This document shows, piece by piece, positions 5,714-28,161 of a stretch of DNA of 64,000 bases. The DNA lies in NCBI GenBank assembly GCA_024275485.1, contig JAJRZA010000053.1, positions 24,608 to 88,607 on the forward strand. Direction: 5' to 3'. The stretch comes from Candidatus Krumholzibacteriota bacterium (GTDB lineage Bacteria; Krumholzibacteriota; Krumholzibacteriia; LZORAL124-64-63). The translations under genes were made by a program, and so were the position numbers. The notes beneath the pieces were generated by a model, which ran no database searches, was not told the origin of the DNA, and was given only the letters and a program-made list of their open reading frames with translations. Within the stretch, counting starts at the first letter, position 1. Every line of letters begins with the position of its first letter.

Positions 5714-7774
5714 TTAGAACTCCCATTTCAGCCAGAGATCGCTCTCCCAGTAATCGGAGCTGGCCTCCGAAATGCTGGGACCAAAAGCGTTGTATTTCTT
5801 GATCATGGCGGACAACTCCAGGGGATTCTTACTCCCCCATTTACGGCTAACACGGGTACCGATCCAAATTTTTCCTTCCAGGCGCCCGGTCACCCGGTCG
5901 GTAGTGCTGATGGTAATTTTTTCGTCCTTGGTGTTGTAGGTGGCCCCTTCAAGGATGACTCCATTGGCCACATCGAATTTGAAAGACAGGTCGATTTTTC
6001 CAATGGTTTGTCGCTGGTTCGTAAAATATTCGTTGCTGCCCGAGCTGCCTTCATTGGTTTTTTCTGCGCTGAAACGCTTGTTGAAATCGTACTTGACCGT
6101 AATATTAAGACGTTTGGTGGGCTTGAGTTTCACTACCGTGGAAAGATTGCCACGTTTGTTGTAGTTGTCCACACGAGATGAGCCTTCCAGGTGCGAAAAA
6201 GTATAGTCGGTATATTGGATGTAGACACGATAGTTCTGACTGAAGGTCAACCAAGAGGAGATGGGCCAGCTGTAGCTGGGAGAAATTTCAAAACTATCCT
6301 TGACATTGTTGTTGGAGGAACGAGTGGAATGCAGGGCAATATCATTGTTTTGCCTGTAGAAAAACACCATGGTGGTTCGGAAACGCTCCACCCAGTTGCG
6401 TTCCAGCCTGGCTGAAAAATCGTAGCGCAAGCGATCCTTGTCGGTGTTCACGTAACTATTCTCGGCCGTGTCCTGCGTCAATCCGGTGACCCAATTGACC
6501 CGCATTTGGGTATCAGCGAAAAGTATCCGTTCCCAAAGGATTTTCAGGGTTCGATCTTTTTTGTACTGCTTGCCGCGAAACACATCAGAGCCCTTGGTCA
6601 GCTGATCATCCCACTTCCAGAGATAGGAATATTCGAAAGAGAGGGAATCCCGACCCACCATGAAGCTCAGGGCAAATTCGGCCTCCTGCTGGAGCCTCTC
6701 CTTGAAACCAACCCGGCTTATGGAAAAATCGGATTCGTCCGAGGTTTGAGACAGGGTGGTGGCCATGGTCAGGCCCAGAAAACGGGTTTCATTGACCAAA
6801 CTCAAGGTCAGGGCATCCTTGATCTCCATCTCGTCAACAACCTTGTCATCTTCAGCCAGACCCACCGTATCGATCAAACCGTTGGTATCGCGTTTGTAGT
6901 CCAGATACTTGCGATCATAGTTGCCTCGGGTCAGGGAGACACGGCCGCTGGAAAAATTTCGATCGTAGTATACACCAATACCCAAGGTGTCTGTGGTGGA
7001 TGACGAAGGAGCCGTATCTTCCCCCAGGGACCGGTCACCTCCAGTAGCCCGACCGAAGAGACGGCCAGCCACCGTCACCCCCTCGAACACATCGGTACCC
7101 ACCTGCATCCCGCCGTCCAGGTAAGATTCGGCCACGTCGTTGCGCCGGTTTTGGTTGATGGATTTCTGATCATTCATCCCTGCCGAAGATTTTAATGTCA
7201 GCCTCATCCCACCGATTCGCAATTGGGGTTTGCTAAACAAAAGACCGGCGCTCTTGTAGTCGCGTTTGGAAACGTTTTCAAACCCACCGGCATTGATGGT
7301 GTTATCTTCATTCCAATCCCAGCTACCTTTCAAAGTGGCCATAAAAGGCAAGGTGCGACCTGTGTTGTAGCTGGAGTTGGCGCTGCGTTTTTCATTGGTT
7401 TTGATTTGCTGGCGAAATTCGGACCAGGAATAACTGACCTTGTTGGTCATGGTTGCGCCTTGGGCCATGGTGATGATGTTGGTGAAATCGCCGTAATACA
7501 TGTAGCTGGTAACGTTGGTTTTGATACCTGCCTTCGGAGTATTTTTTAATCCCACCAAAAATGACGTATCCTGTTCCCGCCCCTGGTTGAGGTCCTGGTA
7601 AACTCCTTCTTGGCCCTCTGCCGCTTCGGCCACGCCGGCAAGCCCCCCCGAAGCCGGGGAATCGGTAGTCAGGGTATCTCCCTCAGCACCGGACATGGAA
7701 TCGGCAGCTGCCTCGCCATGGGCCCAAACCAACGTTGCCGGTACACACAGAACCACTATCAGGAGCAACAACAC
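5714..7774 (-). CDS. Large predicted outer-membrane beta-barrel protein of unknown family
   Basis: Signal peptide ending LVWA, many alternating amphipathic strands, C-terminal WLKWEF (BAM-type terminal Phe). Start is GTG 7774 or possibly CTG 7813. Confidence 0.75.
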   Translation of the reverse strand: MLLLLIVVLCVPATLVWAHGEAAADSMSGAEGDTLTTDSPASGGLAGVAEAAEGQEGVYQDLNQGREQDTSFLVGLKNTPKAGIKTNVTSYMYYGDFTNIITMAQGATMTNKVSYSWSEFRQQIKTNEKRSANSSYNTGRTLPFMATLKGSWDWNEDNTINAGGFENVSKRDYKSAGLLFSKPQLRIGGMRLTLKSSAGMNDQKSINQNRRNDVAESYLDGGMQVGTDVFEGVTVAGRLFGRATGGDRSLGEDTAPSSSTTDTLGIGVYYDRNFSSGRVSLTRGNYDRKYLDYKRDTNGLIDTVGLAEDDKVVDEMEIKDALTLSLVNETRFLGLTMATTLSQTSDESDFSISRVGFKERLQQEAEFALSFMVGRDSLSFEYSYLWKWDDQLTKGSDVFRGKQYKKDRTLKILWERILFADTQMRVNWVTGLTQDTAENSYVNTDKDRLRYDFSARLERNWVERFRTTMVFFYRQNNDIALHSTRSSNNNVKDSFEISPSYSWPISSWLTFSQNYRVYIQYTDYTFSHLEGSSRVDNYNKRGNLSTVVKLKPTKRLNITVKYDFNKRFSAEKTNEGSSGSNEYFTNQRQTIGKIDLSFKFDVANGVILEGATYNTKDEKITISTTDRVTGRLEGKIWIGTRVSRKWGSKNPLELSAMIKKYNAFGPSISEASSDYWESDLWLKWEF

Positions 7775-7809
7775 CTGGGCCGCAAATCCGGTTTGCCAAG
7801 CGGATCGGT

Positions 7810-8646
7810 TCAGGGCATATCCTTTCGGGGCAACAGCCGGGCCAGGCGGCGCCAGGAAGGAGCTTCCAGTTGCTCGGGACGCAAGTCCATGTCCACTCCG
7901 GCATCCTCTGCCAGGGTTTGAATTGTTTCAGGTGTCAATTTGAAATGACTGCGCAGTTGCGTCCTCAATTTTTTGCGCCTTTGTTGGAACAGGGCTTTAA
8001 CCACAGCGAGAAATTGGCGGAATTCTTCGTCCGGCCAGGAGCCGCTGGGCACCAACTGCACCACAGCCGATTCTACATCCGGCCGGGGCCAGAAAACCGA
8101 TGAAGGAACAGTTCTGCTGATACGAATATCAAAGATGGAGCCCAACACCACGGCCAAAATTCCAAAATCACGGCCACCGCAAGTGGCGACCAGTCGCTCT
8201 GCCACTTCCTTTTGGACCATGAACACCGCCCCGCTGATCACCTCTCGATGATCGGCCAGGGCAAACAGAACCTTACTTGTAAGGACGTAGGGCAGATTGC
8301 CGGCCACCACGGGTTTCAATCCGGCAAGCACCAGGGTACCAGCCCAGTCCAGCTTGGAAAGATCGGCTTCAACCAGTTCAAAATTTGGCAAAGCACCGTG
8401 TTCGGCGGTGAGCAGGGCGCAAAGATGGCGATCAACCTCCACACCGACGACTCTTCGGGCCGATGCCAACAGGTGAATGGTCAGCGCACCCGCGCCGGCA
8501 CCCAGTTCCAGGACTTCATCACCCAGATCCAGGATGTCCTGGGCAATGGCCCGGGCCAAATTGGTATCGATCAGGAAATTTTGCCCCCTGCGTTTGACAG
8601 GTCGAATTCCATAGTCGCGCAAAAGTGACTGTTGGCTACGAGACAA
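7810..8646 (-). CDS. rsmA: 16S rRNA m6,2A1518/1519 dimethyltransferase RsmA/KsgA
   Basis: KRRGQNFLID, VLELGAGAGALT, VAGNLPY, MVQKEVAERL, FWPRPDVESAV and QRRKKL motifs; TTG 8646 follows a GGAGG RBS. Confidence 0.96.
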   Translation of the reverse strand: MSRSQQSLLRDYGIRPVKRRGQNFLIDTNLARAIAQDILDLGDEVLELGAGAGALTIHLLASARRVVGVEVDRHLCALLTAEHGALPNFELVEADLSKLDWAGTLVLAGLKPVVAGNLPYVLTSKVLFALADHREVISGAVFMVQKEVAERLVATCGGRDFGILAVVLGSIFDIRISRTVPSSVFWPRPDVESAVVQLVPSGSWPDEEFRQFLAVVKALFQQRRKKLRTQLRSHFKLTPETIQTLAEDAGVDMDLRPEQLEAPSWRRLARLLPRKDMP

Positions 8647-9439
8647 GAGGTCCTCCAGCAAAGAGTCGTCGAAAGTTCTTTGTGGTTTGAATATCGACTT
8701 CATTTTCCGTCATGCCCAAAACCGAGGCCACCTTGGCCCTGGTGTGCACCAGGTAGGACGATTCATTACGTTGCCCGCGATGAGGAACCGGCGGCAACCA
8801 GGGGGCATCGGTCTCCAGGAGAATCATTTCGATTCCAGCCAGTGCCACCAGGAAATCCAGTCGACTGTTTTTATAAGTGATGGGACCACCAATGCCGAGA
8901 TAAAATCCGCGCTCACGGGCCCATTCCACCGAGTCTTCATTTCCGGAAAAGGAATGCAGGATTCCACCGCAGGTGGGTACCCCGAACTCGTCGATCATGG
9001 CCAAAGTCTCCGTCCAGGCGTCTCTTATGTGAAACACCACAGGCAACTGAAGATCCTCCGCCATTGCCAATTGCAATTTCAATGCCGCTCTTTGGGCGGG
9101 GCGGGGGCTCAAGTCACGGTAGAAATCCAGCCCTATTTCGCCAATGGCCACCACCCGGGGATGCTTCGCCAAGTCCCTTAAACGGGCCAGAATGTCTTCT
9201 ATTTCGGGCACCGGCCTACCATCCGCATCTGCCAGCAGGGTGGCATCGTGGGGATGAATGCCGACGGTGGCCAAAATATCAGCATGGGATTCGGCCAGGG
9301 AAATGCTTTCTGTACTGCTGGCAAGGTCGTAGCCCACGTTGAGGAAGGCGGTGACACCGGCTGAGCGGGCACGTTGCAGGACCTCGGCTTGGGCACCAGC
9401 GAATTCCTCGCGGTTCAAGTGGACGTGACTGTCGATCAT
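8636..9439 (-). CDS. tatD: TatD-family metal-dependent DNase/hydrolase
   Basis: MIDSHVHL, TVGIHPH, AIGEIGLDFY, HSFSG and LETDAPWL motifs; ATG 9439 overlaps the upstream TGA. Confidence 0.95.
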   Translation of the reverse strand: MIDSHVHLNREEFAGAQAEVLQRARSAGVTAFLNVGYDLASSTESISLAESHADILATVGIHPHDATLLADADGRPVPEIEDILARLRDLAKHPRVVAIGEIGLDFYRDLSPRPAQRAALKLQLAMAEDLQLPVVFHIRDAWTETLAMIDEFGVPTCGGILHSFSGNEDSVEWARERGFYLGIGGPITYKNSRLDFLVALAGIEMILLETDAPWLPPVPHRGQRNESSYLVHTRAKVASVLGMTENEVDIQTTKNFRRLFAGGPLVS

Positions 9440-10413
9440 TTGCAACCACCGCCGTTTTTCCCGCAACCGCCTCCCGAACAACCTGAGGGAGGTTTGGGCT
9501 CGGGCAAATCCCGCTGTCCCTCCCAGGTCAATTCCCCAACTGAATATTCGGTCATGCGGTCCAATCCCACGACCGAGACGGAGACTATCTCCCTGATCAG
9601 ATCCAGTTTGCGCACGGTTCCGCGGCCATCCGGAGTGTTCAGGCGAGTGCCCACCCTCGGCATGCGCCGACGAATATCCAGGTAACTCTCCTGCTCGTAG
9701 GTCAGGCAGCAGCGCAGTCGGCCGCAGGGTCCACTCAACTTGCCGGGATTTAGGGGGAGCTGTTGCACTTTGGCCATTTTCAGGGTCACCGGAACAAATT
9801 CGTGCAAGAAACTGGAACAACAGAATTCTCGTCCGCAAACGCCGAGACCGCCCTTGAGTCGGGCTTCATCACGAACCCCGATTTGGCGCAGCTCTATGCG
9901 GGTGCGAAAAACGGAAGCCAGATCCCGCACCAATTCACGGAAATCCACCCGCTTTTCCGCGGTGAAAAAGAAGGTGATTTTTTTGTGGTCGAACTGTCGC
10001 TCCACCGAGACAAGGTTCATCTTCAGCCTGCGGGCAATAATTTTCTCCCGACAGATGTCCCAGAACTCCCACTCGTCGCCACGGTTGTTGTGCAGGCGGG
10101 CCAGATCGGATTTGGTCGCCAGGGACATGACACCCTGCCGATTCGCCGCTGCCCACCAATCCAGGTTACCGGGGCCGACGTAGTTGATGCGCCCCATGTC
10201 GTAGCCACGATCAGCCTCCACCAGGCAATAATGCCCAACCTTCAGGTCCACCAGTTTGCGGTTGTGGTAATAACCTTTGCGATGGCCCTTGAACTGGACC
10301 AGCACCAGGTCTTCGCCGGACAAATCCTGGTTTCTGGTTGAATCCTGCCCGGGACCGCGGTGACCGGGTTTGCCCCGGTTCCTGCCATCAGACGGATTGG
10401 TCTCGTGCAGCAT
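9436..10413 (-). CDS. ricT: PSP1-domain protein (RicT/YaaT-like)
   Basis: FFFTAEKRVDFRELVRDLA, RIELRQIGVRDEA, GVCGREFCC and KLSGPCGRLRCCLTYE motifs. Confidence 0.92.
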   Translation of the reverse strand: MLHETNPSDGRNRGKPGHRGPGQDSTRNQDLSGEDLVLVQFKGHRKGYYHNRKLVDLKVGHYCLVEADRGYDMGRINYVGPGNLDWWAAANRQGVMSLATKSDLARLHNNRGDEWEFWDICREKIIARRLKMNLVSVERQFDHKKITFFFTAEKRVDFRELVRDLASVFRTRIELRQIGVRDEARLKGGLGVCGREFCCSSFLHEFVPVTLKMAKVQQLPLNPGKLSGPCGRLRCCLTYEQESYLDIRRRMPRVGTRLNTPDGRGTVRKLDLIREIVSVSVVGLDRMTEYSVGELTWEGQRDLPEPKPPSGCSGGGCGKNGGGCK

Positions 10414-11620
10414 GATCTATCAATCCTTCAAACAACACCGCCATGGAAAGGCCGATGTTGATGTTGCGGTCAATTTCGCGTCGTGTGTTTTCGATCAGGG
10501 CCATGTCTTCCAAAAGGGTATCGGTCAGACGGTGACTCGCCACCCTGGACACCACGGATTCACTGATGGGCAGACGGGGTTTCCACTCATCCGCCAGTTC
10601 TCGACAGGCCACGGCATCACTGTAATGCAGAACCAACAATTCGCACAAGCGAATGGCTCGCCCCCGGCTATCGGCCAGGGAGTTTTTTTCCTTGTCATTG
10701 CGCCCCTTCTTGGGCGGCTTGATGTCCAGGGTATGACTGTACACCCCACGATGGATTTCGTCAGCACTGATGGCGGTCATTCCGCGCTCTTGCATATCGA
10801 TCCAGTCGAAGAGGCGACTAGACCACTGCACCAGACCCAGCACTGTCGGCTCCAGCATGGCCAGGGCCTGTCTGGCATTCCCTTCGGCCATGCGGCTGAC
10901 CTGGGCGGCCCGCGCCTGGTCGGCACCACCATCTTCAATCAAAATGCGGGTCAGTTGCTCGTCGGTCCAGGGTTTGAAGATAATTTTCTGGCAACGCGAA
11001 AGAATGGTGGGCAACATGCCGTCGGTGCTGGTGGTCATCAGAAAAATTACCGTATTTTCGGAAGGTTCTTCAAGGGTTTTGAGGAAGGCGTTGGCCGCCG
11101 AGGGGTTGAACCGATGACTGTCCGCAACGATGGCAACCTTGTAACGTCCCTGGAAAGAGCGCTTGCGCAGGAAGTGGATCAGGGAACGAATGGTCAGTTG
11201 GGCTGGTTTTTCGGGATCCCCGATGCGCACAAAACTGGTGGCGGCAAACCCCGGCATGAAGAAAGGATTCTCGACCTTGTTTTTATAAAGACGACACACC
11301 TGGGCCTCGTCCACCGACGCGGGCGAAGGACAAATCCAGCGCACATCCGGATGTTGGAAACTGAGAGTTTTGACGCAACTCTCGCACCGGCGTTCAGCAG
11401 AACAGGAATCGGATCCGGCGCAATTGATCAGGCGAGAAAATTCCAGGGCGGTGTTTTCCTTGCCGCAGCCCTCGGGACCAACCAACAGGAAGGGTTGCCC
11501 CAGCTTGCCGGCCGCGGCAACAGCCTGCAGTTTTTCCAAAACGGCCTTCCGGCCCAGAAACGCTTTTCTGCCCAAAACCCAAACTCCCGGTGTGCGGTAC
11601 GCCGGAACCAAGGCCGGCAA
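10388..11620 (-). CDS. holB: DNA polymerase III subunit delta'
   Basis: LLVGPEGCGK, Cys4 Zn module, HPDV, SAANAFLKTLEEP and LPTILSRC motifs; the true start may be TTG 11575. Confidence 0.9.
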   Translation of the reverse strand: MPALVPAYRTPGVWVLGRKAFLGRKAVLEKLQAVAAAGKLGQPFLLVGPEGCGKENTALEFSRLINCAGSDSCSAERRCESCVKTLSFQHPDVRWICPSPASVDEAQVCRLYKNKVENPFFMPGFAATSFVRIGDPEKPAQLTIRSLIHFLRKRSFQGRYKVAIVADSHRFNPSAANAFLKTLEEPSENTVIFLMTTSTDGMLPTILSRCQKIIFKPWTDEQLTRILIEDGGADQARAAQVSRMAEGNARQALAMLEPTVLGLVQWSSRLFDWIDMQERGMTAISADEIHRGVYSHTLDIKPPKKGRNDKEKNSLADSRGRAIRLCELLVLHYSDAVACRELADEWKPRLPISESVVSRVASHRLTDTLLEDMALIENTRREIDRNINIGLSMAVLFEGLIDHAARDQSV

Positions 11621-16244: not shown

Positions 16245-17579
16245 TCAGATTTTCTCATCAATAAAGAAGCGTTTTTTCAACCCTTCCACATATTCCGCCA
16301 AAGCAACTTCAATTTTTTCGCTCTCAACAGCCTGCCGCAGATTGTCCTTCAGCTCTTCGAAGGTGTACTTGTGGCCTTCGGTCTTTCCCAGTACCTGGAA
16401 GATATACCAACCGGCCGGGGTCAACAGCGGTTCGGTTACCACACCAACTTCAGCATCCTGCAAGGCCTCCTGGAACTGGGTGGAAAGATCCTTGAGACTG
16501 AATGTACCGAGCAGACCACCTTTGCCAGCAGATACTGGATCGGCGCTGACCTCGGCCGCCACCCGGGCGAAATTCTCACCCGAGATTATGCGCTGGCGGG
16601 CAGCCTTGATCTGATCTTCAGCCAGCTTCATATCCGCTTCGGTAATTTCGATGGGAAAAAAGATCTGACTGAGAGCACGCTTGCCATTGGGTTGAACGGA
16701 GTTGACCAGTAAAAGGTGAACCCCCCGGGAGCTGATCACAGGATCACTCACCTGGCCCACCAGCAGGGAAAAGACAGCTCGGTCCAGGCTGGAGTCGAAA
16801 AGATCGCCCGGCCCCACCACTCCCACTGCCCCACCTCGACTGGCGTTGGGGCCGGCGCTGTACTTTCGAGCCAAATGTTCAAAACTCACCCCGGCAGCCA
16901 GTTCCGCTTGCACCTTTTCCACATTCACCTGAATTTCCTGGCGCACCGTCAGGCTGGGCTGCACCGGGACCAGAATATTGGCGATGGTCAGACTATCGGG
17001 TTCCACAGGCATTTCCGCCAGATGATCCAGGTAGTAGTCCCTAACTTCATTGTCCAACACCTCGACCTTGGGCCGGATAAATTTTCCCACCACCAGGCGC
17101 AAGTACTGCTGGTCACGCATTTGGCTGCTCATGCGTGTCTTGTAGTCACCCAGAGTCATGCCATTGCGTTTCAATTCGGTCTGCAAGGCGTCAAGGGAAC
17201 CAAAGTGTTCGATAAACTGGTCGATTTTCTGCTGGACGCTGGCTTCGATGGCTTCTTCATCCACCGACATGTCCTCCTGTTTGGCTGCCGCGATAATCAG
17301 CTTGCTCTCCATGAGGCGCTCGAGCATTTCCCGACGCACCTCGGTGGGGGTTTCGCTGATGGTCTGACCGGCATATTCTTTTTCCAGTTGGTAGAGTTCG
17401 ACTTCCCTGTCCACATCACTCTGCAGAATGGCCTCTTCATCGACGATGGCCACGATTCGATCCACAAGGACCGTCTCCTGGGCTACGGCTGCCGGTATGA
17501 ATGCCGTCAGCCACAGGAAACAGAATCCCCAAAAACCTGGGCCCCAAACCCGTCGATTGTTTACTCGCAAGATCATCAA
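16245..17579 (-). CDS. surA: SurA-like periplasmic chaperone/PPIase
   Basis: Signal peptide, VDRIVAIVDEEAILQSDV N-terminal domain, two parvulin domains (FEHLARKYS...GG; FARVAAEVSADP...GGLLG). Confidence 0.88.
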   Translation of the reverse strand: MMILRVNNRRVWGPGFWGFCFLWLTAFIPAAVAQETVLVDRIVAIVDEEAILQSDVDREVELYQLEKEYAGQTISETPTEVRREMLERLMESKLIIAAAKQEDMSVDEEAIEASVQQKIDQFIEHFGSLDALQTELKRNGMTLGDYKTRMSSQMRDQQYLRLVVGKFIRPKVEVLDNEVRDYYLDHLAEMPVEPDSLTIANILVPVQPSLTVRQEIQVNVEKVQAELAAGVSFEHLARKYSAGPNASRGGAVGVVGPGDLFDSSLDRAVFSLLVGQVSDPVISSRGVHLLLVNSVQPNGKRALSQIFFPIEITEADMKLAEDQIKAARQRIISGENFARVAAEVSADPVSAGKGGLLGTFSLKDLSTQFQEALQDAEVGVVTEPLLTPAGWYIFQVLGKTEGHKYTFEELKDNLRQAVESEKIEVALAEYVEGLKKRFFIDEKI

Positions 17580-17590
17580 TCCTCCAGGAA

Positions 17591-19450
17591 TCAGTTACGG
17601 GGAACCAGGTTATCGGGGACCTTGACCTCGGTGAGTTCTTTCCAGGACTTCAATTCGGCCAGCTTTTCAGTGAAAATCTCCACCCCGATTTCGTCTTTCC
17701 ATTCCTCCAGAATCTTTACAAAAGCGGCCTCCTGACGTTTGCTCCGCATTCGTCCACCGATAGCCTCGGAAACCTCATACAATTCGTAGGCTTTCGAGGG
17801 CTTGATGAAGTCCAGCTGGACCACGGCAAAATTGCCCTCGTTCACGGTGAATGGTTGGCTGACTCCCCCCACTTCGAGAGCAAAGAACTTTGCGGCCAGA
17901 GGTGATGGGCTATTGATACCCAAATAATCGGTTTTACCGCCACGTTGCTTGTTATTCGGGTCAGTGCCAAAATCCACCAGGATCTTGCGCCAGGAAACGC
18001 CATCGATGATGGCCTTGTAGGCTTCATCGGCCTTCTCCCGGTTCAAGCAAATAACCAGATGGCCAGCGCGGGTCTCGGGAGAGATATATTCATCCTGGTG
18101 CTCGGCCCAGAACTCCGCCAACTGCTCGGGAGTGATCTTTTCATCATATGCAACAGCTTCCTTGTACAGACGCGTCACCATGATCTCTTCGATCTTCTTA
18201 TCCACGATGGCAACCACATCCGCTCGTTCGAAATAGCCACGCTTTTCAGCTTCAATGTTCATCATTCCGCGCTCAATTTCATCTTCAATCTTCCGCCGCA
18301 GGCCACCAAGCATTTCTTCTTTTTTGGGACGTTGGAAAACACCCATTTTGTCGAAATGGATTTTATAGTCAGCCACCGTCGATTCGACGGGTTGCCCATC
18401 TTTCCCCTTGTATGAATAGAAAATCAGTCCCAGGTCTTCGGTCCTGACCTCCAGATCCTTCAATTGGTCGCGTTTGTATGGCTCATTGGTTTACGGATCC
18501 ATCAGCCCGCCTTCGGGCATCCCCTGGTACACGGCCCACAGAGCATCCTGATTGATTTTAAACTCGTATTTGGCTCTGATCTCTTTTTTGAATTTCTGGC
18601 GCGTTTCACCAATTTTTCGGTTGCGGGCGATATCCAGGATATGGGCCTTGGCCACTTCCAAATCAGGTTTTTCGTCATGCCTGATTTCAATCACACGCAC
18701 AACCCAATAACCATAGGAGGAAAGAATTGGCAGGGAAACACCTCCCAGATCGGTGGCGAAGATTTTTTCCTCAAAATCCAAGGAGTATTGCCCAAAAGGC
18801 ACCAAGAGTTCGTATTTGTTGGACACCGAACGAGTGCCATCATGGTACTTGTTGACCACATCCTCCCAGTCAGCACCGGACAAGGCGTATTGCCGAGCTT
18901 TCAGGGCATCCGCTTCCAGATTACAGATCACGTAATTGCAATTATATACAGTGCCCATCTTGGAATAAAAATCCTGAAGTTCCTCTTCAGAGATGGTGGA
19001 TGTTACCTCCAGCACCACGTCGTTCCACAAAGCCAGACCGGCCTGGTACTGGATCATATTCAGGCGGGCGGAAATCACGGTGGGATCCAGATTGTAACCC
19101 AGCTTGATGGCTTTTTGATTCATGAGTTCTTTGTTGACCAGGACATCCATAAAGGCACGCTTGCCTTCCAGGGTGCCCATGTCCATGACAACGCCATCTT
19201 TCCGGGGAAGTTCATCGACGGTCAAATTGGACAAGCGGTCTTCGTAATATTTGGCTGTGATCTCACCATCGCCCACTTTGGCCAGCACCGCGGAGTGGTC
19301 CTCGTATTTGGAAAAGTCATTGTCGGCCTTGTCGCCGCCACAGCCAGTGGCCAGAAGAGACACCAAAATGGCGCCCACCAGAATCAGGGTTGTGGAAATT
19401 GTTGGACGGTTCCTGAGGGAGGTCCGATTGGTAGCGAGGCTCGAAAACAT
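17591..19450 (-). pseudogene. Tandem-repeat PrsA/SurA-like PPIase lipoprotein interrupted by an in-frame TAA at 18491-18493 (ORFs 18491-19450 and 17591-18463)
   Basis: aaggag RBS and ATG 19450, LLATG-C lipobox, two chaperone/parvulin-like repeats. Both ORFs share one frame: ...GLMDP*TNEPYKRDQLKDLEV... Confidence 0.8.
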
Positions 19451-19506
19451 GATCACTCCTTGTTTTTGGTCCAAATTTGGATTTATCCGGATATTCCGGA
19501 TTCGGT

Positions 19507-23250: not shown

Positions 23251-23652
23251 CTACCAAACCGGTCCGAGGCTCTCGCGATCACGATCGTAAAAAGAGCAGT
23301 TGCCCTTCTCAACATGACCCCGGAAACATTCTTCGTACGTGTTTTGGTAGTGTTCTTCCAGTGCGCGGCAAAGCGCAGGTCTTGGCAGCCAGTGGCCTTC
23401 TTCGTCGATCAAGACCGATTTGTTCAAAAGCAGCTGGTCCCCTCGGTAGACCCCATAAAGCAAGACTTGAATGGGACTGATGTTCCTTCCTGACAGACAT
23501 TCGAGCAAGCCGCAGAGAGTATCGGAAAAGAAATGGTCATAGACGGGCTCGGCACCTTCACCCCCCAGAATGTCAACCCATCCTTCGTAGGTGAACGGCA
23601 GGTTTCGGTCACGCATCGACTGTGGACAGACGCCTTTTATTCCGGCTTTCAT
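23251..23652 (-). CDS. Hypothetical Cys/His-containing protein
   Basis: aaggag RBS 7 nt before ATG 23652; globular-looking composition with spaced Cys and His residues. Confidence 0.7.
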   Translation of the reverse strand: MKAGIKGVCPQSMRDRNLPFTYEGWVDILGGEGAEPVYDHFFSDTLCGLLECLSGRNISPIQVLLYGVYRGDQLLLNKSVLIDEEGHWLPRPALCRALEEHYQNTYEECFRGHVEKGNCSFYDRDRESLGPVW

Positions 23653-23742
23653 GCCAGTGCTCCTTTGATACTCCCCCAAGGTCCTTCTGCCTACTCCCCA
23701 CACCAGTTGCAGTCGGACTCAAGGTCAAACAGCGGGGCGAAA

Positions 23743-23768
23743 CGGGGCCGGCGGTTCCACCGGCCCCG
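23743..23768 (-). terminator. GC-rich hairpin, probable terminator of the protease gene
   Basis: cggggccgg-N8-ccggccccg, about 12 nt after the protease stop; only a short T run follows on the minus strand. Confidence 0.6.
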
Positions 23769-23780
23769 CCCAACTCTCCT

Positions 23781-26153
23781 CTAGTTGGTGGCCTTTTTCA
23801 TTTTCTTGCCATAAGTCTTGATCCTGGACTTGATGTCCGTCAGTACGGGTTCCACCACGTTCCGTTTGGCCATGGTATTCAACAGGGTTTCCTGAACCTT
23901 GACCGCCTTACCCGCATCCCCCTGGCTGTTCACCAGGTCGGTGTACTGGTCGGTCATGGTCTTGAATTTGATATGACCGAAAGTATCGATGGCTTGGTCG
24001 GCTTTGTTGTCCAGGGCCGTTGTCAAAGTCTTCAAACCCTTGTCGACCTTGGCTTCGGTTATCTTGATTACGCCACCGAGACTTGTGGCCTTGGCGAGGA
24101 TATCATTCATCCCACCATCCAGATTCAGCATCTTGTAGTTGCGGGTCATCGTATTACCCAACACCAAATTTGCGTGCAGGGATACCCGTTGTCCCTTCAA
24201 CTGTTTCGTGATCGTCTTCAAGGTATTGATGCCGCTCTCAAGAACGCGGCTACCTCCGAAGGTCAGAATCCGGCCTACATCTTCGCTAAAGAAGTCCTGG
24301 GCCAAGACCTGTTCATCGAAACTGTTGGCAGGCCTGACAGTCATGAGCATCGGCTGTGAGACAATATCCTTTTCTTCGTGGTGAAGACAAATCTGGACGA
24401 CGTATCGTCCTGCCTCATCAATGTTCCAGCCACCGGAGCCCACCGATACCAACATGGAGCTGTAAAGCGATTGGCCGGGCTCGAGCGCCACGAGTTTCGG
24501 CTCGAGGCAGTATTGGGCAAAAGGAGTCATCTGCTTGGCTTCGTCGTTCTCACGCTTGGTGACAACCGTGAGATGATCGCTGCGTTCAAGGATGTTCTGG
24601 TCAACAAGCTGCGTCCGGTCCGAGGTGTTGGTCAGTTTGAGCTCAATGTTGACAGGTTCAAGGAACTCGTAGACAGGTGTGTCCCGGTTGACCCGTGTCT
24701 CCAGACGGAGAGTCGGAGTCTCCTCGACATTTGCGCCTTCGAAGCCATGATTGTCAAACCAGTTTGCTCCACCCATCTTGACGAAACGCTCCGGAGCATG
24801 ACGCAAAAAGAGAAGTTCGTTGTTGCTGAAACGGAACTGGAAGTCGGAGAAGAAGGCAGTCTGACCTCCGCTAACATTGTAGGGATAGTTCATGAAGCTG
24901 CGCGCCTCCGGCTCATTGGATAATGGAATCCAGGGCGTTCCCCAGGAAGTGGGATGCTGTTTCTGCCAGGAATGCGCCAGATTGAAACCGTGTCCCATCT
25001 CGTGGACCGCCGTCCAAAAGCGCATTCGATTGACCCAAGCCGCCGGGTGGGTATCGCCCGGCGGTGCGTTGGAGATGAATGAATCGTAGAAGAGTGACGT
25101 TCCCTGCCGATGGTTTGGACCGATGTCGTCGAACATGATCCCACCCAGGCCCGACCCCATTTCGTGTTGATTGGCAAACAGAACCCACATGGCCCATTGC
25201 GACGTATTCTGGAATCGCGACCAATAGGTCTGCATCGCATCGTGCATTTCCGAATCGCTCCAGTTTGGATTGGTGTTCTGACCTGCAATAGCCAATGGCA
25301 CCTGCGAAGGGTTTGGCGAAAGCGATACGTCGAATCCAGCCCGCTGGTAGACCTTGCCGATGGAAAGGTCCCGGGACGGGATATTGGCCGGACGGTTGGG
25401 GTGGGAATGAGTCTGGTGGCTAGTCACCGGGGTGATGCCGACCACGTGGTCATACTCGAATTCCACCTTGTGGAAATACCGAGATACAAAATTGAAGTGG
25501 CGAACCCTGGTAGGTTGCCCTGAGCCCCGGAATTCCACCCGCACCTTCTTCTGGCTGGGTAACCAGCTCCTGGTCACCTTCACAACGATGGTGTTCTGGG
25601 GCAACATTCGGGTGTTGCCATCCTTGTGCCAGATCTGTCCTATCCAGACGTTGCGTGAGGTCCGGTGCAGGTTTGCGATCCAGTGGAGGCGGTTGCGGAA
25701 GCCACGCCTGATGGTGCCGCTGGCCACATTCTGGGGATACCGGTCATCCACATCCAACCTGAGTTCCTCATTTTCCAACCAAGGCAACCTGAAAATCTGA
25801 TCATCGGCCATCTGAGTTGTATTGGCGTATTCCATCTCCATCCCGGTTTCATCCTCGATACCATCGTTGATATCCAGGTCCGTATCCAGGTCCGTATCAT
25901 CCAATTCCTGGTTCAGTTGCATACCAGGGATTGCCGTTGTGTATGGCTGTCTGGGGATGGGAGTTGGCAGGGGGAATGGGCGAGGTATGGGGAATGGTAT
26001 TCTCGTGATGATTCGCCGTACCCCTTTGTACAGTCCACTGACGGTGATCCGCGGCCGCATGGGAAGATATGGCACCATTTCTTCCATGTCGATCCTGTGG
26101 TCAACCTCTGACGACTGGGTGGTTTGATCTTGTTTTGTCTCAGTTTTCTTCAT
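23781..26153 (-). CDS. Metzincin-like zinc metalloprotease, 790 aa, no signal peptide
   Basis: VHEMGHGFNLAH (HExxHxxGxxH with G replaced by N) followed by a Met-turn-like SFMNYP; ggagg RBS. Confidence 0.8.
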   Translation of the reverse strand: MKKTETKQDQTTQSSEVDHRIDMEEMVPYLPMRPRITVSGLYKGVRRIITRIPFPIPRPFPLPTPIPRQPYTTAIPGMQLNQELDDTDLDTDLDINDGIEDETGMEMEYANTTQMADDQIFRLPWLENEELRLDVDDRYPQNVASGTIRRGFRNRLHWIANLHRTSRNVWIGQIWHKDGNTRMLPQNTIVVKVTRSWLPSQKKVRVEFRGSGQPTRVRHFNFVSRYFHKVEFEYDHVVGITPVTSHQTHSHPNRPANIPSRDLSIGKVYQRAGFDVSLSPNPSQVPLAIAGQNTNPNWSDSEMHDAMQTYWSRFQNTSQWAMWVLFANQHEMGSGLGGIMFDDIGPNHRQGTSLFYDSFISNAPPGDTHPAAWVNRMRFWTAVHEMGHGFNLAHSWQKQHPTSWGTPWIPLSNEPEARSFMNYPYNVSGGQTAFFSDFQFRFSNNELLFLRHAPERFVKMGGANWFDNHGFEGANVEETPTLRLETRVNRDTPVYEFLEPVNIELKLTNTSDRTQLVDQNILERSDHLTVVTKRENDEAKQMTPFAQYCLEPKLVALEPGQSLYSSMLVSVGSGGWNIDEAGRYVVQICLHHEEKDIVSQPMLMTVRPANSFDEQVLAQDFFSEDVGRILTFGGSRVLESGINTLKTITKQLKGQRVSLHANLVLGNTMTRNYKMLNLDGGMNDILAKATSLGGVIKITEAKVDKGLKTLTTALDNKADQAIDTFGHIKFKTMTDQYTDLVNSQGDAGKAVKVQETLLNTMAKRNVVEPVLTDIKSRIKTYGKKMKKATN
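25871..25898. repeat. 12-bp tandem repeat (about 2.3 copies) encoding DTDL-DTDL
   Basis: tatccaggtccg x2 plus tatc, inside the protease N-terminal region. Confidence 0.7.
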
Positions 26154-26256
26154 CTTTATTCCTCCAATTTCACGGACAAAAAAGTTTGACGTTATTCACT
26201 CTCCTTGTTTTAAATCCACATCCACTGCTGCCACGGGTGCTGTTTATATTTCCTGC

Positions 26257-26568
26257 CTACATGTAATGGAACGGATGATTTTGTTCCAAGTGGGTGATGC
26301 TGCCATCATCGTTTCGCACGACTCCCACATAGGTTTGCACGTCCACTTGCAGGATAATGTTTTGTGATTGATGTCTATCCGGTTGTTCGATGGTGATTTT
26401 CACCGTTCCGGTCGGAACAGTGGTTGAGAAAGATTCAGCCAAACCAATTTGATACCTGGTTTTAACTCCCTTTTTACGCCAGGCTTCTTTCCCGTCAATC
26501 AGGATGACGATGGTATCATCGTCAAACCCTTCCTGCAAATCCAGTTGCAGATTGACTGTTTCTGCCAT
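26257..26568 (-). CDS. Small hypothetical protein (103 aa, predicted beta-rich) upstream of the protease
   Basis: aggag RBS and ATG; alternating beta-strand pattern; co-oriented with the protease. Confidence 0.75.
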   Translation of the reverse strand: MAETVNLQLDLQEGFDDDTIVILIDGKEAWRKKGVKTRYQIGLAESFSTTVPTGTVKITIEQPDRHQSQNIILQVDVQTYVGVVRNDDGSITHLEQNHPFHYM

Positions 26569-26871
26569 GGCGGCTCCTATTTCTTGTTCAATGATCTCAA
26601 CAAGGGATCTCTCTTGGCCGCGTTCCCCCAGATTCCAACTAAAGCAAGGTATGGGATTTTTTTTTACAAATTACAATTCACCCCCATTTATTTCCAAATC
26701 CCTTTGGAAGACGATTGGGTTAAACCAAGGTGGAAAGCAAAGGAGTAGGACCTGTATTTTGACCACGACGCCACAGGTGCAAGGAAGGTATGATCTCCAT
26801 TCGCGACGTGAATAATATATCTAAACGACAAACAGCCGTTGGCGCCACCCATCGAATTATTGACCGTGGAA

Positions 26872-28161
26872 TTATTTTGATGAAAACCCATTGGACCCTT
26901 CTTCATTTATGCCGGTCCAGGATTCTGAACTGCCCAACTCATTGGTTCCACCGGCTGCCTCGGCTGCAATCTTGCCAACGTCCTCGGTGATTTCTTCCTT
27001 TTCTCCACCATCATTCCCGCTGCTGATCAGGGCCCTAACCCATTTCACTTCAGGAGCCCCGGGACTATCCGGTCTCGATTGCAGATCCAAACCCGCCTTT
27101 TGGCGGTGGAACCGAAACCCTGATCCACCCACATCGATGAAGATGAGATCGCCTGGGTTGATCTTACCCTGAACAACGAAATGGGACAGTGGAGTTACTA
27201 CCAGATGGTCGAGAGCGCGATTCAAGGGTCGAGCTCCCAGGGACGGATCAGCCTTGTGCTCGATGATCCGGATTTTTGCTGCCGGCGTCAGATGGATCAA
27301 GAAGGGCTTGTTTGCGGACAAGGTACGGCGCTGAAACCGGGAAACCTGCAAATCCAGAATCTGCAACAGATGTTCATCCTGCAGGGGAGCGAAAGTGATG
27401 GCCTGGTCGAATCGATTCAAGAATTCAATGGGAAAAGTTTTGCGGGCGGCTCGCCAAGCGGCTGCATCCATATCCTTGACGGTGATCTGGTCATGGGAAG
27501 TAAATCCGATTCCCTCGTGGCCCAGGCGCGCGCTCATGGCCTCACTGCCCACATTGGTGGTCAGAATGATGATGGAGTTCCGAAAACTGCTCTCTTCGTT
27601 GTTGGCCAGAACCAGTTGACCATCCTCCAGAATACCCAGCAACAAATCCCACATCTTGGGATGGGCTTTTTCAATCTCATCGAAAAGAACGAGAGACAAG
27701 GGTTTGTTTTTGGATCCACCAAGAAGATTGTGCAACAGGGAATCTTCCTGAGAAACCAGGCCTATTCCATCGTCCAGGGCTTTCAAGCAGTGGCGGTCGA
27801 GGTTTTCCTGGCACACCAGGGGCTTGACTTCTGCCCCCACGTAACCTGGAGGCGAGCCCATGAGTTTGGACAAATTGAAATGGGCGGAGAATTCCTGGCA
27901 GTTGATTCTGGTGAAAGCTCGTTGATGCCCAAAAAGAATCCGGGCGAGTGCCCGGACGGTTTCTGTTTTACCCACACCCGTGGGTCCCATGAAGAGCATC
28001 GTCAGCAAGGGGCGTTCGCAGTCTTGAATTCCTGCCAGAAGCCGACTCAGACTGTCGATCAGTTTGTCAATGGCTCCCGGTTGCCCGACTACTTGTTGTC
28101 TTAAATCCAGTGAGAACCGCCGCAACTGACCCTCGTGGGGATCATGCCGCAATTCGTCCAA
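26872..28161 (-). CDS. Stand-alone ClpA/B/C D2-type AAA+ ATPase
   Basis: VVGQ, LFMGPTGVGKT, GSPPGYVG, VLFDEIEKAH, TTNVG, IGF, EFLNRFD and LGARPL motifs; no N-domain or D1. Confidence 0.9.
   Translation of the reverse strand: MDELRHDPHEGQLRRFSLDLRQQVVGQPGAIDKLIDSLSRLLAGIQDCERPLLTMLFMGPTGVGKTETVRALARILFGHQRAFTRINCQEFSAHFNLSKLMGSPPGYVGAEVKPLVCQENLDRHCLKALDDGIGLVSQEDSLLHNLLGGSKNKPLSLVLFDEIEKAHPKMWDLLLGILEDGQLVLANNEESSFRNSIIILTTNVGSEAMSARLGHEGIGFTSHDQITVKDMDAAAWRAARKTFPIEFLNRFDQAITFAPLQDEHLLQILDLQVSRFQRRTLSANKPFLIHLTPAAKIRIIEHKADPSLGARPLNRALDHLVVTPLSHFVVQGKINPGDLIFIDVGGSGFRFHRQKAGLDLQSRPDSPGAPEVKWVRALISSGNDGGEKEEITEDVGKIAAEAAGGTNELGSSESWTGINEEGSNGFSSK

Follow-up and report, generated by a model that had tools for sequence, protein, structure and literature searches.

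A metzincin-like protease gene paired with a gene for a small Ig-like protein in a Krumholzibacteriota bacterium and in many scattered lineages

Metzincins are textbook extracellular enzymes, and AprA and AprI form the classic cognate pair of a bacterial metzincin and its inhibitor, in which the periplasmic AprI blocks the cleft by its N-terminal residues and AprA carries RTX repeats and leaves the cell by type I secretion. In Pseudomonas aeruginosa, BamI (PA2782) is encoded upstream of, and co-transcribed with, mep72 (PA2783). According to its description, BamI is in part natively unfolded, forms a complex with Mep72 and relieves the toxicity of that protease in E. coli; Mep72 itself has a 20-residue signal sequence, Xcp type II secretion and carbohydrate-binding domains (PMC4334185). 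These operon-encoded inhibitors of exported metzincins are the closest functional precedents for a gene pair that we analysed in a 64,000-nucleotide (nt) stretch of Candidatus Krumholzibacteriota bacterium (assembly GCA_024275485.1, contig JAJRZA010000053.1, positions 24,608 to 88,607; hereafter the window). The pair consists of a protease gene of 790 amino acids (aa) at 23781-26153 on the minus strand, delimited by its open reading frame (ORF), its homologs and its AlphaFold2 domains, and a partner gene of 103 aa at 26257-26568 on the same strand, delimited by its ORF, its family and its AlphaFold2 model.

As in AprA/AprI (Inh, SmaPI), a metzincin is accompanied by an all-β partner of about 100 residues, presumably encoded in the same operon here too, and as in Mep72/BamI, the small partner gene lies directly upstream of the metzincin gene, which is the majority order here. 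Unlike the exported pairs, the protease has neither an export signal nor a neighbouring secretion system, and the partner, which also lacks a signal peptide, is a well-folded immunoglobulin (Ig)-like β-sandwich whose conserved element is its C-terminal tail. The distinction from Mep72/BamI was drawn from the published description of that pair. A metzincin with a cognate small partner is already known as a kind, and a literature search found no description of this protease or partner family. Absent from the libraries and literature searched are the family itself, its cytoplasmic location, an Asn-for-Gly zinc motif and the tail-bearing Ig-like partner, as well as a linkage to an AAA+ gene, a pseudo-enzyme paralog and fusions to M28 peptidases. 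The gene pair is real, widely scattered and undescribed so far, and the partner probably controls the protease.

A metzincin-like protease family

Direct translation confirmed the 790-aa ORF with HEMGHGFNLAH and FMNY that an earlier note on this DNA had read as metzincin-like. The extended zinc motif HEMGHGFNLAH (24972-25004, minus strand) contains H384, E385, H388 and H394, and the Met-turn candidate SFMNYP (24882-24899, minus strand) places M421 27 residues beyond the third zinc His (H394), comparable to the metzincin Met-turns ALMYP and SxMSY. These four residues, M421 and the GGIMFDDIGPNHRQGT block are invariant in the protease alignment. The family motif HExxHxxNxxH has the canonical His/Glu spacing of a metzincin, with an invariant Asn replacing the canonical Gly, and it was intact in every locus checked once regex variants had been resolved. 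SFMNYP was matched by a strict regex in nearly all loci, the few misses being minor variants or broken ORFs. The protease thus shares with the M12B and M10 metzincins the HExxHxxxxxH spacing, three His ligands, the catalytic Glu and a downstream invariant Met, whereas it differs from them in the Asn-for-Gly replacement, in its novel accessory domains, in its cytoplasmic location and in that no core member reaches a Pfam gathering score.

The Pfam matches were weak but consistent. For the window protease, Reprolysin_3 and Reprolysin_4 scored 18.8 and 17.1 bits against gathering thresholds of 22.4 and 22 bits, and among 30 aligned members all matches were sub-threshold (Reprolysin_4 in 30, Reprolysin_3 in 17, Reprolysin_5 in 11 and Matrixin in 8; best E 9e-5) and spanned about 100-120 residues. 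A single remote member (P0463) passed Reprolysin_4, at 24.9 against 22 bits. The protease matched no NCBIfam family and nothing in PADLOC at E <= 0.1, and a search of the PDB with the protease profile returned only a 19-residue match to the zinc motif of MMP-12 (E~0.6). The protease is accordingly uncharacterised, as had been proposed earlier, with no curated family and no PDB assignment. Going by its sequence, we take it for a new metzincin-clan family, likely to be catalytically competent.

At least 1726 homologs were found, very uniform in length, all annotated as 'hypothetical' and none with a Pfam domain. About 50% identity is retained between members from Chloroflexota, Cyanobacteria, Planctomycetota, Nitrospirota, Acidobacteriota, Actinomycetota, Bacteroidota, Pseudomonadota and others. 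An exhaustive profile search gave 1984 clusters at 50% identity, 619 of them at E <= 1e-30. Because a pattern scan of 185,579 species genomes found only 282 stretches encoding a relative, the family is rare yet very widely scattered. Its carriers include environmentally important organisms, such as Nitrospira, anammox Brocadia, filamentous cyanobacteria and Oxalobacteraceae, and the cultured Duganella sp. Root1480D1, Pseudoduganella namucuonensis, Pseudomonas benzenivorans DSM 8628 and Longitalea make experiments feasible.

AlphaFold2 predicted a disordered N-terminus (residues 1-125), a β-domain (127-250), a catalytic region (~255-475), an Ig-like β-sandwich (480-610) and a helical tail (612-789), the last two with a predicted local distance difference test (pLDDT) of ~90 and the β-domain also well modelled; this layout bears out the β-rich N-domain, Ig-like region and helical tail suggested from the sequence. 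Near the N-terminus lies a VSGLY motif (26028-26042, minus strand), joined to the folded body by a variable Pro-rich and acidic linker that reaches to about residue 125. SG[LTMRV]Y is present in most loci, including those lacking the partner, and the SG[L/R]Y motif is probably an intramolecular element.

The earlier statement that the protease lacks a Sec or Tat signal was also upheld. Averaged over 19 residues, Kyte-Doolittle hydropathy peaked at 0.93 in the protease and at 0.57 in the partner, with no signal peptide or transmembrane (TM) segment, and the family maxima were 1.45 among 30 protease homologs and 1.61 among 109 partner homologs, the single partner homolog at 1.61 being just at the usual TM cut-off. 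Fusion proteins of about 1150 aa join an N-terminal Peptidase_M28 aminopeptidase domain (E 1e-38 to 1e-43) to the metzincin-like core; the members P0478, P0481, P0493, P0496 and P0501 have no signal peptide, retain HETGHAFNLAHSFQK and carry the N-terminal motif as SGRY. Since an exopeptidase (M28) is here coupled to an endopeptidase, these fusions argue for real intracellular hydrolysis of peptide bonds. A distant archaeal homolog (24% identity) was observed on a Halocatena salina plasmid (L089:4770-7355), where the catalytic part (539 aa) and the Ig-like and helical parts seem to lie on separate consecutive ORFs; a partner homolog was not detected at this locus.

The partner, its coupling to the protease and its C-terminal tail

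The partner family comprises at least 459 proteins, 98-103 residues long, that carry neither an annotation nor a Pfam match. Translation and the AlphaFold2 model agreed with the earlier description of a co-oriented, β-rich protein of 103 aa ending in PFHYM: the model is an all-β, eight-stranded Ig-like β-sandwich (pLDDT 88.7) with an unstructured, flexible C-terminal tail, and the family carries a conserved TRxQxGLA loop. Foldseek against the PDB gave weak matches to generic β-sandwiches (E >= 2.7e-3 among the 50 matches listed), and a PDB sequence search with the partner profile gave no match. A test by hhalign for paralogy between the partner and the β-domains of the protease gave no match, and the partner is unrelated to every protease domain.

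To what extent the two genes belong together was assessed in a sample of 87 loci from metagenomes and reference genomes. In 76 of them, drawn from more than 15 phyla, the partner adjoins the protease; 64 partners lie upstream and 11 downstream on the same strand, at gaps of 30-320 nt and 38-243 nt, respectively, and 1 is convergent, so that the genes are both adjacent and co-oriented in 75 of the 87. Pairing is kept even at 27% protease identity, in a homolog on a Rhizobium megaplasmid whose partner lies downstream (E = 6e-19). Because gene order varies while adjacency stays constant, this arrangement is a classic sign of functional coupling. A mirror-tree comparison pointed in the same direction, the pairwise distances of protease and partner being correlated at r = 0.847, a value reached in 0 of 2000 permutations. 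The partner evolves faster (mean p-distance 0.65 vs 0.47 for the protease). When the ORFs within 6 kb of the pair were clustered, no further family proved to be widely conserved; what emerged were antisense shadow ORFs and synteny specific to Nitrospira. The co-occurrence predicted by the earlier note was thus found, with variable gene order.

In the window, the partner tail reads PFHYM-COOH (26260-26274, minus strand; the stop codon extends to 26257), and the near-invariant family consensus is [S/Q]-x-E-P-F-[G/R]-Y-[L/V/A/M]-COOH. Among 75 partners, 68 have Phe at −4, 70 have Tyr at −2, and all 75 end in a small hydrophobic residue (Leu, Val, Ala or Met). The fixed register of the motif with the free carboxylate suggests that the tail docks or is directed at the active site. 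The tail recalls carboxypeptidase-inhibitor tails or proteasomal HbYX/GQYL motifs, a resemblance that we take to be a lead only.

Position −3 of the tail, which is Gly in some partners and Arg, Lys, His or others in the rest, covaries with a column of the catalytic domain represented in the window by Y356 (codon 25086-25088, minus strand). This residue lies in LFYDSF, which directly follows the invariant GPNHRQGT. Tyr occupies column 356 in 14 loci from four separate clades of a neighbour-joining tree, all with a residue other than Gly at tail −3, and in 0 of 51 pairs with a Gly(−3) partner. Counting lineages, the covariation is suggestive (p ≈ 0.01, not phylogenetically corrected). With a tail that is near-invariant and covaries with a catalytic-domain residue, the proposal that the partner C-terminus engages the protease gains indirect support.

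A possible tail-gated cytoplasmic protease and alternative readings

We tentatively prefer a reading in which the two genes encode a stoichiometric cytoplasmic pair, a metzincin-type zinc endopeptidase with all elements of the catalytic site in place (HExxHxxNxxH and a Met-turn) and a dedicated Ig-fold regulatory subunit. The partner would bind the catalytic domain via its flexible tail …E-P-F-x-Y-Φ-COOH, probably also via the TRxQxGLA loop, and would keep the protease latent or gate access to the cleft; proteolysis would follow once the partner was displaced or removed. In the subclade of the window, a ClpB-D2-like AAA+ unfoldase is a candidate for removing the partner or feeding substrates. 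Physical binding, contact of the tail with the catalytic domain, an inhibitory effect and any role of the AAA+ protein are what we infer here. If the …F-x-Y-Φ-COOH tail does gate the active site, it would be a new mode of controlling metzincin latency, in a compact and testable protease-regulator pair. A large and strongly conserved family would act inside the cell with an obligate partner protein, unlike the extracellular textbook picture of metzincins.

We hold the latent, tail-gated protease to be a possible reading and nothing firmer, because intact proteases without a partner exist and because the interface was deduced indirectly. Several observations weigh against it. In 11 of the 87 loci (~10%), the protease has intact catalytic motifs and no detectable partner, although in 3 of these 11 the contig end is too near to judge, and the Bacillus cereus-group megaplasmid copy that was examined also lacks a partner; since such partner-less intact proteases exist, the protease is not necessarily harmful alone. 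The placement of the binding site depends on a single covarying column, not formally corrected for phylogeny, and the conserved tail fits an adaptor docking motif or a degron equally well. No serralysin inhibitor (the AprI/Inh type, a β-barrel) was among the 50 listed Foldseek matches of the partner. The catalytic region is poorly modelled (pLDDT <50 over 334-354 and 410-470), and because of this poor core the Foldseek search with the protease model gave only generic Ig-like β-sandwiches of the GH3 and antibody type. In sequencing runs, 7% of the words of the locus were found in one marine-sediment DNA run and none in any RNA run.

The main alternative, which we consider unlikely although it is the most serious one, is that the partner is not an inhibitor but a substrate-recruiting adaptor, an activator or an assembly factor following a ClpS- or SspB-like logic. 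Its tail would dock on the protease or on the AAA+ unfoldase, and the protease would be inactive or unspecific without it. The adjacency and co-divergence of the two genes and the terminal motif in fixed register fit such an adaptor, and the partner-less intact proteases are easier to reconcile with a partner that does not protect. The tail, however, covaries with the protease catalytic domain and not with anything in the AAA+ protein. The AAA+ linkage found in one subclade also speaks for the adaptor.

The AAA+ gene (26872-28161, minus strand; assigned by Pfam, PADLOC and motifs) is co-oriented with the pair, directly upstream of its leader, and encodes a single-ring ClpB-D2-like ATPase of 429 aa with intact Walker A and B motifs, GYVG pore loop and sensor 2 and an acidic, disordered C-terminal extension. 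It matches Pfam AAA_2 (1e-34) and ClpB_D2-small (3e-14) and the PADLOC candidates PDC-M37B (2e-27) and DolB (1e-18), and it belongs to a very large family of stand-alone ~410-aa rings annotated ClpA/B/C (>7900 matches). Within the window protease subclade, the gene has the same position and orientation in L093/L009, L095 and L096 (52-53% identity), and in L016 it lies beside the pair on the opposite strand. In a Krumholzibacteriia metagenome-assembled genome (MAG), what looks like a decayed AAA+ gene precedes an intact partner and protease: immediately ahead of the partner, two short ORF fragments that overlap each other match the AAA+ protein (L006:7085-7627, equal to L014:8794-9336; 47-49% identity over ~55 aa each). 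The gene is absent from the other ~80 loci, which counts against an adaptor working with it, and no pair adjoins the closest AAA+ homolog examined (84% identical) or another at 52% identity. We rejected the possibility that the linked copies form a dedicated subfamily, since they are of no distinct subtype and share their motifs and acidic C-terminal GGxxEEITE tail with unlinked copies. The AAA+ protein is a candidate accessory specific to this subclade. The earlier view of a self-contained unit needs qualifying, as the coordinates given there leave out this recurrently linked upstream gene, which the note had missed.

A further AAA+ copy bears on the role of the partner. In L098, whose metagenome also yielded the closest intact pair (P0002), an AAA+ gene (7001-8311; 78% identical to that of the window) is followed after 35 nt by a protease paralog (8346-10523, plus strand) of 725 aa, related to the protease family at E = 2e-155. 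The paralog keeps the N-terminal SGLY and SFMNDP, whereas its zinc site is degenerate (HGLGDTMGLDH) and the catalytic Glu is lost; it looks like a pseudo-protease, and it has no small partner. Because this paralog, the only catalytically dead one found, lacks a partner, the partner appears to be tied to catalysis, which speaks against the adaptor, although these points are compatible with activation. The AAA+ link, the dead paralog and the M28 fusions are hints of a so far unrecognised pathway of regulated proteolysis inside the cell.

An anti-phage (abortive-infection) or toxin-antitoxin-like function, in which the protease would be a toxic effector neutralised by the partner until infection or stress triggered its release, is improbable in our view and was not borne out as the earlier note had suggested it. 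The patchy distribution over many phyla at ~50% identity suggests horizontal transfer, the cassette is compact and self-contained, the neighbouring AAA+ protein resembles the PADLOC candidates named above, and barnase/barstar, Csm6-like, RES-like or Cas genes occur close to some of the loci. But neither protein matched PADLOC-DB v2.0.0, the partner giving only scattered single matches at E > 1e-3 among 109 members; one of these, to PDC-M02A in 1 of the 109, was rejected as noise. We crudely called 120 neighbour proteins from 18 diverse loci and found no Pfam family more than twice; most were housekeeping proteins (ThiC, DXS, CysRS, TIM, NadA, GroEL), the defence matches were single (one Cas1, one gRAMP, one Cas8g), and there was no defence-island enrichment in these raw counts, for which no background rate was set. 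Synteny around the pair is conserved in ~11 Nitrospira species. No family match was found in 50,697 phage genomes, only one 43-residue fragment in the 2.9 million viral contigs of IMG/VR, and only nine matching plasmid records, mostly megaplasmids or chromids. The intact proteases without a partner also conflict with a toxin that must be neutralised. By the standards of type II toxin-antitoxin systems, the 'toxin' is not small (790 aa) and ~10% of loci lack the partner, which is an Ig-like sandwich with no DNA-binding domain and no Pfam or helix-turn-helix match. The genomic context argues against the defence, toxin-antitoxin and secretion readings and speaks more for a resident physiological role, for example in regulated protein turnover or a stress response, than for defence.

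For the window's subclade, a bolder reading is that the AAA+ protein, the partner and the metzincin make up a new kind of ATP-dependent cytoplasmic proteolytic machine, which we regard as a long shot. The single-ring unfoldase would extract the tail-anchored partner to fire the protease, or would thread substrates to it, with the penultimate-Tyr tail of the partner as a docking or gating element and the dead paralog beside the second AAA+ copy as a regulatory or decoy subunit. Such an architecture, if true, would lie outside the Clp, Lon, FtsH, HslUV and proteasome families. The window's subclade resembles the AAA+ proteases (FtsH, ClpXP/ClpAP, HslUV, proteasome) in having a Clp-type ring gene beside a peptidase gene. 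It differs from them in that the AAA+ gene is missing from most loci and is not a specialised subtype, in that nothing here indicates a self-compartmentalised peptidase chamber, and, compared with the HbYX/GQYL activators of the proteasome, in that the HbYX-like tail is on the small partner and not on the ATPase.

Signal-peptide-independent export, for instance by type I secretion or vesicles, with the partner as an intracellular immunity protein that shields the producer before export, a role proposed for AprI and BamI towards AprA and Mep72, was also raised by the earlier note and is very doubtful: metzincins are typically extracellular, operon-encoded small inhibitors have precedents and type I substrates generally lack N-terminal signals, but no secretion genes (ATP-binding cassette, membrane fusion protein and outer membrane factor or other) recurred near the pair in the surveyed loci, the protease finishes in a well-folded helical domain whose end is rich in Lys, Pfam reported no RTX or Ca-binding repeats, the M28 fusions also lack signals, and a role inside the cell is indicated by the linkage to a cytoplasmic AAA+ unfoldase and to a dead paralog.

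Layout of the locus and neighbouring genes

On the minus strand, 103 nt separate the partner gene from the protease gene downstream, and the start codons of the two ORFs are preceded by good ribosome-binding sites, GGAG and GGAGG. The hairpin noted earlier beyond the protease gene was found again as a G+C-rich, terminator-like element with a weak U tail (23744-23767, minus strand; from sequence and fold), with a 10-bp G+C stem starting 14 nt past the protease stop. The fold of a 76-nt segment containing it reaches −37.4 kcal/mol (z = −3.0 vs shuffles). A consensus terminator scan did not call it, because its U-tract is weak.

Upstream of the pair is a leader or spacer of 303 nt (26569-26871, minus strand; defined by GC content and by alignment to the closest relative, L001). 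What had been described as an AT-rich promoter region of ~300 nt is of that length and moderately AT-rich (GC 44.9% vs 55.1% for the window), but a consensus promoter scan called no sigma-70 consensus in it. A block of ~110 nt (window ~26670-26740, minus strand; L001 ~7430-7540) is conserved in L001, where the upstream gene is a TetR gene in place of the AAA+ gene. The block is a candidate promoter, operator or 5' untranslated region (UTR) element, and because it is shared despite different upstream genes, the pair probably has its own promoter or 5' UTR. An Rfam scan of the locus, leader block included, was negative, and so was a repeat scan of the locus.

Neighbouring genes in other loci gave several minor observations. 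On Rhizobium leguminosarum pRL9b4 (L088:2671-5400), a 909-aa 'ferritin-like domain-containing protein' precedes the 27% protease homolog. The partner-less loci of Chromatiales MAGs (L060:157-924, L063:382-1158, plus strand) have a conserved 250-aa ORF (…FRYPPLKHGSRFG…) upstream of the protease that, by eye, recalls RES-domain toxins. Redox-related neighbours were seen in several places, which may be coincidence: AhpC/TSA in the window and L093, a thioredoxin-like protein in L090 and a Dyp peroxidase in L087.

In the window, an ORF of 150 aa (23251-23703, minus strand), a putative gene, lies between the hairpin and mfd; it matched nothing in Pfam, NCBIfam or PADLOC, and none of the other loci inspected has a counterpart of it downstream of the pair. 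The flanks are otherwise housekeeping genes, as expected from the earlier description of an insertion among core genes: mfd, three SurA/peptidyl-prolyl isomerase (PPIase) paralogs, an AhpC/TSA redoxin, DsbD_N, NifS/NifU and BatA. The three SurA-like/PPIase-domain genes (444, 290 and 327 aa; 16245-19474, minus strand) are consecutive and lie directly downstream of mfd.

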